Shown piece by piece: positions 5,557 to 57,715 of a stretch of 64,000 nucleotides of DNA; position 1 is the first letter of the stretch; the number at the start of each line of letters is the position of its first letter. The position numbers and the translations under genes were made by a program. The notes under the pieces were generated by a model. That model searched no databases, was not told the DNA's origin, and saw only the letters and a list, made by a program, of their open reading frames with translations. Location of the stretch: the NCBI RefSeq assembly GCF_006345805.1, contig NC_042999.1:23002001-23066000 (forward strand), given 5' to 3'. This stretch comes from Octopus sinensis. Taxonomy: Eukaryota.

Positions 5557-5557
<1 letters not shown>

Positions 5558-5610
5558 ACAACAAATTAAGGAACGGCCATAATATTATGGCCGTTCCTTA
5601 ATTTGTTGTT
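5557..5610. repeat. Perfect 54-bp palindrome
   Basis: AACAACAAATTAAGGAACGGCCATAAT followed directly by its exact reverse complement. Confidence 0.95.
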
Positions 5611-5700
5611 GAATTATTATAGTCTCTGACTATTTCCTTTTTCTCACTAGACCGCTGGTGGCAAATAATTTCTGCTGAATTTTTTGCTACCCTATATTGG

Positions 5701-5769
<69 letters not shown>

Positions 5770-20931: not shown

Positions 20932-21560
20932 TACTTGGAGAAGAGAAATAGAGAAATAACGCGTGCGTTCGGTCATATAATAATATAATAAATAAATAAA
21001 ATATATGCATTAAGTAAAATTCTTTTGCAGAGGGGTAAAACAAGTGACAAGAACGGGACGTAAAAGCAATACAAATGAAGAAAAAACAGTAGAAAAAACA
21101 GTACAAATAAAGAAACAGGACAGGGAAGGGCTACTAAAGCCGATTTTTCACATGCGTTCTAACTAATTTTTCCACCGTCTAGGCCTAAAAAAAGCCCTTA
21201 TTGTTGGTTCCCTGTCCTGTTTCTTTTACGTCCTGTTCTTGTCACTTGTTTTACCCCTCTGCAAAAGAATTTTACTTAATTCCTTTTGCAGGAAGGATTG
21301 TTTCGGGCTGGCCGTGTTCTGCCCTTACCTTCGAAACACGCATTGAGTCGAACCAGGGGCAGATGATGAAGGAGAATTTTCCTGTATGTTTGTCCTGACT
21401 CTGTTTTTCGTTGTTTAAAACAGTCGGTTCCTTGATTTTATGTTTTGGTTTCTCGTTGTGTTCTACGTTTATTTGTGGTGTCCTTACTCATATTTATATC
21501 TATATATATGCATGTATATTACATGTAGATGTAAGTATGTACAGTAAATGTATGTATATG
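20928..21560 (+). mobile_element. TA-flanked repeat with inverted 5' duplication; homolog at 44270-44760 on the minus strand
   Basis: 21009-21127 is inverted relative to 21208-21280; shared CCTTCGAAAC...TGATGA motif. Confidence 0.6.
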
Positions 21561-21615
21561 CATATATTGTATTGATTATTATATTATATATATACATATA
21601 TGTATTATATATATA

Positions 21616-21685
<70 letters not shown>

Positions 21686-21753
21686 AATATATATATACAT
21701 ATGTATGTATGTATGTATGTGTGTATGTAGTATGTATGTATGTATGTATGTAT

Positions 21754-22315
21754 TTTTTATTTCTCTTTCCATTTCAGAAATACAACAATTAGTGGTTTGG
21801 ACTTTAGCTGCTCTTTCTAGTGAGTCAGATGTCCTATTATGGCCATCCCTTATATGTTTGAATGTATATTACATAGTCTATTGACTATTTTTCTTTCTCA
21901 CTTGACGGCTAGTAGCGGAGAATTTCTCTTGAATTTTTTGCTACCCTAAAATTTATTAATTAAGGATTTTTTGGCTAATTTTGAAATTAAATCGGCAGTT
22001 TATATTTACTGCTGAGAAAACCGCGCGAGTGTGGTGGATTTTGAACAGTTATAGCATATAGACTCGAGGCATGGTTATTATCACCTCGTGACTATATGGT
22101 AGTCCTTTGCTTTCTGCTGAAGAGGCAATGCCAGTTGTAAATAAATTATTTTATTTACAAAAGATTGCCGAAACTATGCATTGTCCAGAAAGGAGAGGGT
22201 AAACGTTTTTATTTCTCTTTCCATTTCAGAATTACAACTATTAGTGGTTTGGAGTTTAGCTGCTCTTTCTAGTGAGTCAGATGTCCTATTATGGCCATCC
22301 CTTATATGTTTGAAA

Positions 22316-22320
<5 letters not shown>
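21754..22320 (+). mobile_element. Partial tandem unit (period 452 bp) carrying a hammerhead; retrozyme or Penelope pseudo-LTR-like
   Basis: 115-bp direct repeats at 21754-21868 and 22206-22320; microsatellite on both sides; homologous fragment at 5583-5695. Confidence 0.75.
22110..22192 (+). ncRNA. Type I hammerhead ribozyme with intact core, predicted cleavage after GUC at 22185
   Basis: Stem I CTTTCTG/CAGAAAG; CTGAAGA; stem II GGCAAT/ATTGCC with an 11-bp distal hairpin; GAAA; stem III AC-tATGCATt-GT; GTC. Confidence 0.85.
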
Positions 22321-22357
<37 letters not shown>

Positions 22358-44277: not shown

Positions 44278-44866
44278 GATAAATAAAAATATATAAAAAT
44301 ATATGCATACATACAAACATATATGTACGTACCTACATCTACATGTATATATACATGCATATATAAATAATTATACGTGAGTACAGGACACCACAATAAG
44401 ACGTAGAAACGAGAAAAACAAAAAAAACAAAAAACAAGAAAACGAAAAAACAAAAAAAAACAAGAAAACGAAAAAAACAGTTACAGGACGAGCTACACAA
44501 GGAAAAAAACCCCCGTCATCAGCTGTCGCTAGTAGAGTCAAGCATGTTTCGAAGGCAGAGACAGAACACTAATCCACTAGGCCTTCCTGCGAGAGAATTA
44601 AAATAAAATTCCAAGCAGCGGGGCAAAATGAGTACGAACACGAACAGGATGTAACAATAAAACTGCAAAAATAAAAATACATGTACAAAAAATACAAATA
44701 ATTACAAAACGAGAAAATAAAGAGAGAATACGATACAGGAAATCAAACACACAAGAGGACGAACGAAAAAGCCTTTTTTTGGCATAGACGAAGGATACTG
44801 TGGCAGCGCGTGGAGGCAGTCTTTTCAGTAGTAAGAGCAACGTGTAAAAGAAATTTTATTTTATAG

Positions 44867-46368: not shown

Positions 46369-46856
46369 AATATTGATCTGTAATTTTATTCCTCCGAGGT
46401 CGACTTTGCTTTTCATCCTTTCGGGGTCAATAAATTAAGTACCAGTTGCGTACTGGGTCGATCTAATCAACAGCCCCAATCTCCTCCCCAAACACTTCGG
46501 GCCTTGAGCCTAGAGTAGAAAACAAAAGAATATCGATTTGTAATTTTATTCCTCCGAGGTCGACTTTACCTGTCATCTTTTCGGGGTCGATAAATTAAGT
46601 ACCAGTTGCGTACTGGGGTCGATCTAATCGACTGCCCCACTCCCCAAAGATTTCGGGCCTTGTGTCCTAAAGTAGAAAAGATAAGAATATTGATCCGTAA
46701 TTTTATTCCTCCGAGGTCGACTTTACCTGTCATCCTTTAGGGGTCGATAAATTAGGTAATAGTTGTGTACTGAGGTCGATTTAGTTGACTGGCTCCCTCC
46801 CCCAAAATTTCGGTCCTTCTGCCTAAAGCAGAAAAGAATATTGATTCGTAATTTTG
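46369..46856 (+). repeat. Tandem trimer of identically truncated S1 3' halves
   Basis: Three units of about 160 bp, each preceded by AATAT(T/C)GAT..GTAATTTT. Confidence 0.85.
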
Positions 46857-48760: not shown

Positions 48761-50750
48761 GGATCTTTTCCTTTTGAAAGCCAGATTTTCCTAGTTAACT
48801 AAACAATTTGAAACTTCGTATACTGGTAGAATGTGTCAAAAGAAAACATAATTGTAAACCAAAAATGAAAACGGAATTGTAATTTCTAAGTTTAACGTTG
48901 TTTAAAAATTCGAATTTTAACCAATGATATTCTTTCTTTCGGCCTCATATTATTTACTGCTTCTCAAAATATTGTTACTGTGACGTAAACAGCTATTTTG
49001 TGACGTAGTTAACATAGCTAAAATGTAAACATCACCGTCCCATATAACAAAGTCCTAAACAGACAGAATAATAATACAAATACGGCGGGCTTTCGAAATA
49101 GCTGTCGAGAATAAAATGAAATTTCGATGGTAAATTTTTGGAGGGGATTCGGTAATTTTCGTCACTCTTAAATACATGTAATTCGCATTAAATCTTATTT
49201 TTCTGAAAAATCCACGTTTTAAAACATTTTAACTGCCCACCACTTCATCGTGCCTTTGGAGTAGGTGTCACACTTGGGATGGTCAAACCTAGAATACCTT
49301 TCATCATAGGTAATTGCTTGGAGTTCACCTTGAGAGCTAAAACTATATATTTAGTTTCGATATAAAAAATAAAATTGCACAAAATTTTGGCACAAGACCA
49401 ACAATTTGGGAGGAGGGGTTAATCGATTACATTGACTGGTACTTAATTGATCATGAAAGGTAAAGTCGACGACGACGGTAACGTGAGGAGTCGGAAGAAA
49501 TGCCACAAGGTATTTTGTCCGACGCACGAACGATTCTGCCAGCTTGCCCCACCCCCTTCCTTAATAATATTTCTTTCCCAAGTAAGTACAAGGCCTGAAG
49601 CTGATGGGAAGAACTAGTCGATTGTATTCAACTGGTACTTATTCTATAAGCACCGCCCGAAAGAAGGAAAGCTCAGCAATATTCGAACACGGAACGTAAA
49701 GATTCGTAAGAAATGACGCTAGGCATTTTATCCGATGCACAATCGATTCTGCCAGCTTTACATTATATTTTTCGTCGAAGTTTAACTATGTCACCTTGAT
49801 GATATATTTTTACGCGTGGACAAATAATAGAGAGATAATGTGGATCAGATGATATTACATACTGACAAGGGCTTGGTAAAGGACTGTTAGAATGTTTAGG
49901 GATACGGTCCTATACGTTCGGGTTTCAACCCTCACCGGAATTCAAAACAAGCCGTCTGTTCTTCCACGGTCGAGAAAATACATCGATCAAGTATTGGAGA
50001 TCGATATAAATGATTATACTCTCCACTCACCCCAAAATATATGCTTTGTGTCTATAATCAATATTACAAATATATTGTTATTGCTATTTAACTCAGGTCA
50101 TCCTGATAAACCCGGTTGAGGATCAAAGGGTTCCAACTATGACCAACCCGTATTTTTGCGCCCCCACCCTTTTTTCAGATATAGCATCTATGATTATATT
50201 AGCCAATGTACCCTTCCTTTAACCCAGTAGTATATGGTTTTAAGGGGATTTGGGTGTTATTCCTAGCACATCGACGAGCGAAAACGCAGAGGGGCCCTGA
50301 TTATGTGCGAGTATTCGTATAGATGGGTTACGTGTGTGTATGTGGGTGCATACAAGCCAAATAACCGGTTCAAGGCGTGTGTCAAACTGAAGAATCAAAG
50401 CGTGTGCACAAGTTTATAGTAAATATATACATTGTATAGAGAAAACACCCGAAGCCTATACAAAAACACTGAATATGTGTTTATTATTCATCCAAAATAA
50501 ACAGTACGTGTGTGGTCACAGTAACAATATGTTTAGACGGAGCAAATAATTTCAACTCAATACAGAGAATACGATTGGTTAAAATTCGCAGATTTAAACT
50601 ACGTTTAAACTTATAAAATACATTTTTGTCAAAAAAAAACTAGTTGAAATTATTGTTTTCTTTTGACACATTCTACCAGTATACGAAGTTTCAAATTATT
50701 TAGTTAACTAGAAAAATCTGAAAAATCTGGCTTTCAAAAAGAAAAGATCC
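48761..50750. mobile_element. 2-kb long-TIR Merlin-like element with nested S1 SINEs
   Basis: GGATCTTTTC/GAAAAGATCC ends; TSD GACTTATT/GAGTTATT; TIR homologous to 32564-33326. Confidence 0.8.
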
Positions 50751-56503: not shown

Positions 56504-57715
56504 GCGGAGGCGCAATGGCCCAGTGTTTAGGGTTTTGAAAGCCAGATTTTTCTAGTTAACTAAATAATTTGAAACTTCGTATACTGGTAGAATGTGTCAA
56601 AAGAAAACAATAATTTCAACTAGTTTTTTTTTGACAAAAATGTATTTTATAAGTTTATACGTAGTTTAAATCTGCGAATTTTAACCAATCGTATTCTCTG
56701 TATTCAGTTGAAATTATTTGCTCCGTCTAAACATATTGTTACTGTGACGTAAACAGCACACACGTACTGTTTACTTTGGATGAATAATAAACACATATTC
56801 GATGTTTTTGTATAGGCTTCGGGTGTTTTCTCTATACAATGTATATATTTACTATAAACTTGTGCACACGCTTTGATTCTTCAGTTTGACACACGCCTTG
56901 AACCGGTTATTTGGCTTGTATGCACCCACATACACACACGTACCCATCCATATGCATACTCGCACATAATCAGGGGCCCCTCTGCGTTTTCGATCGTCGA
57001 TGTGCTAGGAAAAACACCCAAATCCCTTTAAAACCATATACTACTGGGTTAAAGGAAGGGTACATTGGCTAATATAATCATAGATGCTATATCTGAAAAA
57101 AGGGTGGGGGCGCAAAAATACGGGTTGGTCATAGTTGGAACCCTTTGATCCTCAACCGGGTTTATCAGGATGACCTGAGTTAAATAGCAATAACAATATA
57201 TTTGTAATATTGATTATAGACACAAAGCATATATTTTGGGGTGAGTGGAGAGTATAATCATTTATATCGATCTCCAATACTTGATCGATGTATTTTCTCG
57301 ACCGTGGAAGAACAGACGGCTTGTTTTGAATTCCGGTGAGGGTTGAAACCCGAACGTATAGGACCGTATGCCTAAACATTCTAACAGTCCTTTACCAAGC
57401 CCTTGTCAGTATGTAATATCATCTGATCCACATTATCTCTCTATTATTTGTCCACGCGTAAAAATATATCATCAAGGTGACATAGTTAAACTTCGACGAA
57501 AAATATTTGTGTGTGTTTATTGAGCGAAAACACCTAAAAGCTCCACGAGTTTCCGGCAGAGGGTGGCGGTGACCCCTGTTGTACTCTTTCGCCCCAACTT
57601 TTTTTCACTCTTTCTTGAATAACGCTGCGATGGACTGGCGTCCCGTCCAGCTGGGGGGGGGGGGACACATACGCCACAGGAACCGGGCCCATGAAAAGGA
57701 CGCATAAATAAATAA
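56504..57715 (+). mobile_element. S2 SINE split by a 974-bp inverted local duplication
   Basis: TSD ACACGT(A/G)CTGCGT; head at 56504-56532, body resumes at 57507. Confidence 0.85.
56533..57506 (-). repeat. Inverted duplicate of 49765-50739
   Basis: Near-identical reverse complement; ORFs 49892..50119 and 57152..57379 differ by one residue. Confidence 0.95.

Follow-up and report, generated by a model that had tools for sequence, protein, structure and literature searches.

The 64,000-nucleotide stretch of Octopus sinensis DNA analysed here (64 kb, the window) carries, truncated at its 5' end, one member of a hammerhead-bearing repeat family that has no ORF and is scattered through the genome. 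The family is likely a non-LTR retrozyme for which a Penelope-like element (PLE) likely supplies the mobilising enzyme in trans, a reading to which a probability of roughly 0.85 is assigned. That these are non-autonomous, PLE-mobilised elements is held with still greater confidence. The class itself, non-LTR retrozyme or non-autonomous PLE, is already known, and the value of the feature lies in the footprint left by the family as a whole and not in the window copy itself. The insertion ends bear the PLE-specific signature of two start sites. Published accounts of how animal retrozymes spread are still hypothetical, and this family-level footprint makes the PLE-helper and rolling-circle models testable in vitro. 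The strongest data come from a sister family (family 2) and not from the family of the window copy (family 1); family 2 is young, with hundreds of copies and per-insertion haplotypes, and points to the sites where reverse transcription (RT) starts, to the target, and to two candidate helper clades with intact ORFs.

The window copy and its hammerhead motif

The features of the window copy, and of a small relative elsewhere in the window, are the following, sites A and B being the two fixed 3' ends of the families.

21580..21753: target tract flanking the 5' end, a (TA)n/(TATG)n microsatellite
21754..22315, + strand: one-armed, 5'-truncated family 1 (452-bp) insertion of ~1.25 units, with its fixed 3' end at site A
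21754..21869, + strand: first copy of the 116-nt repeat, its truncated 5' end 21 nt downstream of the would-be cut site of the preceding unit
21864..21960, + strand: 'tail' between sites A and B, unit positions ~111-207, which the window copy has internally only
22110..22192, + strand: type I hammerhead motif with a long helix II and a predicted cut after GUC at 22185, from a pattern scan
22110-22116/22186-22192, + strand: hammerhead stem I (7 bp)
22117-22123, + strand: hammerhead CUGAAGA
22124-22129/22164-22169, + strand: hammerhead stem II (6 bp), enclosing an AU-rich hairpin
22170-22173, + strand: hammerhead GAAA
22183-22185, + strand: hammerhead GUC
22206..22315, + strand: second repeat copy, ending at site A, the inferred RT start, ~130 nt past the cut site
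22317..22357: target tract touching the 3' end, a (TA)n microsatellite
5557..5705: small inverted insertion of family 3 (483-490-bp unit), with two arms and TA runs on either side
5557-5584, - strand: minus arm of the family 3 insertion, ending at site A
5583-5705, + strand: plus arm of the family 3 insertion, ending at site B

Comparison of the window with itself by blastn showed a direct repeat of 116 nt (21754-21869 versus 22206-22321) at an offset of 452, identical at 112 of 116 positions (E 4e-51), with mismatches at 21780, 21787, 21802 and 21863. Since the final bases of the second copy already belong to the TA target, the end of the element is placed at ~22315. The preliminary description of this DNA had reported 115-bp repeats with about four mismatches 452 bp apart, microsatellites on either side and no credible ORF, and all of this agrees with the present analysis, the longest stop-free stretch in the unit being 63 aa. 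No PLE protein match was found within the 64-kb window, and no target-site duplication was discernible within the flanking microsatellites. An intron-like GT...AG stretch at the unit junction (22197-22228) was discarded because it is too short to be plausible as an intron, and no spliced junction turned up.

The hammerhead that had been attributed to the unit was recovered as the type I motif on the + strand, which is the sole match of the pattern scan in the window, whereas 30 dinucleotide-shuffled windows gave 0 strict matches. Rfam matched no hammerhead in the window at gathering score or at E<=10, probably because of the long helix II. Stem III of this copy is short, and T22182, which is A in 74 of 79 family calls, breaks one of its pairs; each core position is intact in 75-80 of 78-80 family calls. 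The isolated window ribozyme is predicted to adopt an alternative helix, that is, to misfold, and this copy would probably be a poor ribozyme. Two consecutive complete hammerheads, by which the 2026 preprint discussed below recognises 'active' copies, are absent from the window copy, which has one, and are present in other copies. With its single hammerhead and private stem III mismatch, the window copy is an unlikely source of circles. It differs from the family 1 majority at 19 of 452 sites, is an old, truncated and probably inactive offspring, and shows no sign of host function.

Four families (families 1 to 4) were recognised, and all keep the hammerhead with differing stems, helix II being 46-70 nt long across these units. 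Among eight hand-picked sequences from the four families, both partners have changed in 7 of the 11 stem I/III pairs, and 96% of stem I/III cells pair, against at most 50% in slid controls; these figures count as support and not as a probability, because the structure was derived from one of the eight related sequences. A G-C/A-U swap in stem I also segregates within family 2 (14 versus 32-34 insertions). Folding of the monomers gave z values of -4.7 and -5.7, and the 452-bp unit (z -4.7) beats 100 of 100 shuffles. In a position-sampled set of family 2, the 5' ends form no clear cluster at the cut site (6 of 100 within 13 nt, p=0.05 post hoc), so that cleavage in vivo has left no clear trace in them; clustering at or just after the cut site had been apparent in score-selected sets and was dropped after the position-sampled set. 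The fidelity of the cut-site junction is swamped by homopolymer assembly errors, with 56 of 143 units altered and control windows ranging from 11 to 80%.

Two fixed 3' ends and the PLE footprint

A search of the 2.7-Gb genome with the element returned 3077 candidates, 40 of them scored, and a 23-mer of family 1 had 62 exact genome matches (control 0). From 120 loci fetched, 72 distinct loci with 106 arms were obtained; they were picked by score or exact motif, which biases the distributions of lengths and starts. The 3' ends of these arms fall at site A in 58 cases, at site B in 36 and elsewhere in 12. Site A corresponds to unit position ~110, ~130 nt past the cut, and site B to position ~207, ~97 nt apart, and TA-rich sequence abuts 80 of the 94 A or B ends. 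The 5' ends are scattered over the unit, and the arms, up to 1199 nt long, extend upstream head-to-tail into more units, up to 2.6 units. Among 26 inverted head-to-head pairs, 20 combine A with B, six have a non-standard end, and none is A+A or B+B (p=2e-6 for 20/20). Repeated passes within an arm differ by 3.8% compared with 9.7% between arms (29 arms), a contrast that is inflated by a few arms of diverged subfamilies. At one locus (L019, G000:C1:189769911-189771467) a whole family 1 insertion together with its TA tract is tandemly triplicated with a period of 528, a DNA-level duplication that followed insertion.

The preliminary description had proposed a retrozyme or circular RNA and had suggested a genome search for tandem arrays and circularly permuted ends. 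The retrozyme-like identity and a multimeric or circular template are supported, as are multiple copies and head-to-tail units, but no circular permutation is seen: the 3' ends are fixed at two sites, and variation is confined to the 5' ends. The 'terminal redundancy' of 115 bp is thus real but incidental, marking where the reverse transcript stopped after 1.25 units. The variable 5' ends also argue against LTRs.

The arrangement of these ends can be compared with that of PLEs. The PLE protein of Anolis nicks both strands of AT-rich DNA and starts RT at two internal sites, which define an optional genomic 'tail' (PMC11167929). A typical PLE insertion includes an arm that is inverted and truncated at its 5' end, and only one of its two ends bears a tail; microsatellites are preferred by the Neptune, Naiad and Hydra clades, the preference of Naiad and Hydra being for (TA)n (PMC8557442). 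Family 1, with its two fixed 3' ends, variable 5' truncation, inverted second arm and (TA)n target, displays the whole PLE 'tail' footprint without an ORF. The footprint, found in both families 1 and 2, supports the Penelope-like helper that had been put forward earlier.

Hammerhead, tail, inversions and (TA)n target are all features of PLE pseudo-LTRs (pLTRs), and the insertion could thus be imagined as a plain pseudo-LTR remnant of an autonomous PLE left by 5' truncation, the alternative named in the preliminary description. This reading also draws on a locus (L046, 1303-2605; G000:C6:38788767-38790070) that joins the unit directly to a PLE end: the insertion is two-armed, and its plus arm switches from the family 1 unit to a Neptune-type GIY-YIG 3' end with 3 nt of microhomology. 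This single case may reflect template switching by a Neptune enzyme or, alternatively, an insertion that came later and was accompanied by a deletion. PLE protein matches were seen in 20 entries among 254 unit-bearing loci (duplicates included), but this is the one distinct locus at which the match is directly joined, with the ORF piece downstream of the unit; the others lie at least 59 nt away. In the unit loci checked, no RT plus GIY-YIG ORF was found upstream of the repeat, and the upstream extensions consist of further units (up to 2.6 in family 1 and up to 10 in family 2) instead of an ORF. The pseudo-LTR reading is therefore rejected as very improbable. The linkage to PLE ORFs that was to be checked thus gave a multicopy family that is unattached to such ORFs and carries the PLE insertion footprint. 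PLE fragments near three loci (L016, L362 and L373) proved to be separate insertions into the same TA tract and were set aside as partners; PLE fragments also lie near L007 and L261, and the base-by-base inspection covered the former three.

Three sister families were recognised. Family 2, reached via a 70%-identical match, has a 490-bp unit ~71% identical to that of family 1, copies that are 95-99% alike, and 477 exact site-A/TA junctions in the genome (control 0); one of its insertions (L204 and L205, G000:C2:154215600-154221040) comprises ~11 units in two inverted arms with one common haplotype. The diverged relative that had been noticed at 5583-5695 of the window is real (79% over 118 nt at 5583-5694, E 5e-18), but it belongs to a separate sister family, family 3, and comes with a short inverted arm at 5557-5584. 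A fourth family type is held by locus L373. Fragments of families 1 and 2 also occur in contigs from sequencing runs (four runs, then three of those and another; possibly RNA, with one of unknown kind), and as these contigs carry no strand, end or circle information they were counted neither way.

Template and candidate helper

The nature of the template was addressed in family 2 with 60 insertions taken in list order from the first 100 of the 477 junctions, three already sampled being skipped; 58 were parsed, and two (L219 and L265) could not be chained and were left out. In 42 of the 58 insertions two arms are present; the other arm terminates at site B in 39 of these, at site A in one and at a different position in two. 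The 100 arms measure 29-5046 nt (mean 684, or ~1.4 units) with a near-exponential length distribution; 43 exceed one unit and 25 exceed two, and no cut-off appears up to the maximum of 10 units. Variants were counted at sites covered by at least two units, with homopolymer edges masked: 85 are fixed across all units of an insertion (67 of these with coverage of both arms), compared with 16 partial and 91 single variants. The 25 insertions of at least two units carry 18 haplotypes, a count possibly inflated by uneven coverage, and 10 private fixed variants. Units of the same insertion diverge by 0.70%, arms by 0.58% and different insertions by 1.96%, and the score-selected set (n=26) gave 35 fixed, three partial and 53 single variants. 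Each insertion thus looks copied from one monomer type repeatedly, on both arms, and the single haplotype that mostly unites the units of an insertion across both arms fits repeated copying of one template, likely a circle. Linear transcripts of homogeneous arrays would also be expected to give this haplotype signal, part of which reflects shared lineage.

Some of the 16 partial variants occupy adjacent units (L232, L242 and L246), and in one array (L275) the last unit differs. Sharing of variants by adjacent units points to some DNA-level expansion, and the partial variants together with this array show either such expansion or mixed templates. A satellite-like repeat spread at the DNA level by slippage, unequal exchange or extrachromosomal DNA circles, with the ribozyme as an inherited passenger, would account for the variants common to adjacent units and for the local triplication of one family 1 insertion; as it predicts neither two fixed 3' ends with A+B pairing of inverted arms, nor hundreds of scattered insertions into (TA)n, nor compensatory changes in the ribozyme, a satellite origin is given very little credence.

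A PLE-mobilised element could also be copied from a multimeric transcript that is linear, remains mostly uncleaved and derives from a small number of homogeneous tandem arrays, the hammerhead acting later or in trimming only. Uncleaved RNA is the main substrate of the Anolis PLE, for whose insertion in vitro ribozyme cleavage is not required (PMC11167929); several haplotype markers are common to multiple insertions, as expected from master loci; partial variants make up 16 of 192 at multiply covered sites; and arrays of 10-12 units exist as possible masters. Daughters of a linear template would never be longer than their parent and average ~1.4 units per arm, yet each of numerous haplotypes, with 10 private fixed variants among them, occupies an entire two-armed insertion of several units, and this calls for a monomer bottleneck followed by re-multimerisation. 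No cut-off in arm length is seen up to 10 units. A linear transcript of a homogeneous array covers single events, but not short daughters that regenerate long arrays with new haplotypes. The linear template is considered unlikely, and a circular RNA, to which the variant patterns point, is somewhat favoured as the template of the insertions.

With a circular template, tandem loci would be transcribed and the ribozyme would excise monomers, which would probably be ligated into circles. A PLE protein would nick a (TA)n tract and start RT inside the unit at site A or site B, each strand of the DNA using one of them, and would copy backwards through the unit and beyond the ribozyme junction for a random length (in family 2, a mean of ~1.4 units). 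One or two arms would then be joined in, and the window copy would represent a single site-A arm that stopped after 1.25 units. In a more specific and tentative form of this model, the families would be genomic records of rolling-circle target-primed RT, in which a PLE enzyme acting as a dimer goes up to ten times round a single RNA circle produced by the ribozyme, starting from two fixed sites within it, each of which serves one strand of the target. An RNA without detectable sequence relation to its helper would have to be recognised by structure, and the element could then be described as a viroid-like parasite of Hydra-clade PLEs.

Intact PLE ORFs of at least two clades, Neptune-type and Hydra-type, are present in the genome. 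Neptune-type PLEs have RT plus GIY-YIG ORFs of 775-781 aa, a CxxxxCxxC-type linker, (TA)n ends and, by eye, a minimal U3/A8 hammerhead-like motif. One young Neptune-type family (L121-L128) has a 781-aa frame in many copies, 3' repeats rich in CCAAT/TGACGTCA and a minimal hammerhead-like motif with a U3/A8 core. Hydra-type PLEs, with 16,345 first-look candidates, show the CxCX5C, CxxC, CxH and DKT motifs described in PMC8557442; their hammerhead is canonical with a helix II of 54-60 nt, and their ends, ~35 and ~155 nt past the cut, occur in an inverted A+B arrangement at (TA)n. Very abundant Hydra-clade PLEs (L328-L377, e.g., G000:C5:61958200-61968100) have long open frames, 814 aa in L366, and an Asn-rich linker. 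The Hydra-clade tail of ~120 nt is far above the published 30-40 bp, and the long helix II and ~120-nt tail make the Hydra-type architecture a closer match to the units than the Neptune-type one. A Hydra-type PLE is the leading candidate for the helper, at about even odds, a Neptune-type PLE, to which the one chimera at L046 points, being a less probable one and any other helper improbable. The 73 and 50 GIY-YIG loci compared, a small sample of ~5,000 and ~16,000 candidates, yielded no autonomous PLE resembling the unit in DNA sequence, and no autonomous partner emerged from the GIY-YIG family search, the protein search or the DNA comparison.

Relation to known elements and other repeats of the window

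Non-LTR retrozymes with circular RNAs have been shown in coral, mussel and axolotl, and a PLE helper with a circular template has been proposed to yield their tandem cDNA (PMC7229834). A 2026 preprint regards retrozymes as non-autonomous PLE derivatives on the basis of co-occurrence and pLTR similarity, reports that one of nine Xenopus retrozyme dimers was cleaved and eight were not, and calls the mobilisation mechanism open (bioRxiv 10.64898/2026.07.22.740005). Like the metazoan non-LTR retrozymes described in these two sources, the octopus families consist of short, AT-rich, non-coding head-to-tail units with a type I hammerhead each, and are highly self-paired, dispersed in hundreds of copies and found alongside autonomous PLEs. 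With 452-490 bp, the unit lies at the top of the 150-450 bp range of PMC7229834 or beyond it, and within the 51-972 bp of the preprint. For the octopus families, circular RNA and cleavage are predictions. The two-site tail, A+B pairing and per-insertion haplotypes of the octopus families have no such description in the consulted parts of the retrozyme papers. In Xenopus, 24 of 57 families matched known elements, and 21 of 22 matched elements were PLEs, while no homologous pLTR was found for the octopus families.

The octopus families also resemble canonical EN+ PLEs (Poseidon_Ac: PMC11167929; Hydra, Neptune: PMC8557442) in their two internal RT starts, optional tail, 5' truncation, inverted arms, AT-rich or (TA)n target and hammerhead upstream of the 3' ends. 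They differ from PLEs in lacking an ORF, their arms being multimers of the non-coding unit alone, and in a tail of ~97-106 nt compared with the 30-40 bp published for PLEs. Multicopy head-to-tail insertions are shared with non-autonomous PLEs of Chlamys such as MRC1; PLEs of Chlamys are described as mostly without canonical hammerheads, and their non-autonomous elements resemble autonomous partners at the 3' end (PMC8557442), whereas no 3'-similar autonomous partner was found for the octopus units. A literature search, mostly of titles and abstracts and without Repbase, most subscription journals or supplements, returned no work on these families or on a retrozyme tail or haplotype footprint, and the families may already be annotated as a Penelope non-autonomous element.

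Further repeats were observed in the window. Just upstream of the family 1 copy lies a TA-flanked, two-armed inverted element (21009-21500; arms 21009-21069 and 21220-21280, 97%), which has a 68% relative at 44378-44654, and at ~21315-21385 hammerhead-like blocks occur in permuted order, with GAAAC...GTC before an AUGAUGA-type core. Inverted arms at 49765-50720 and 56543-57506 are 98-99% complementary and ~5.8 kb apart with no long ORF between them, and are possibly a recent DNA transposon or foldback. At 46369-46838, a 157-bp unit is present three times in tandem and looks like part of an abundant dispersed short repeat.
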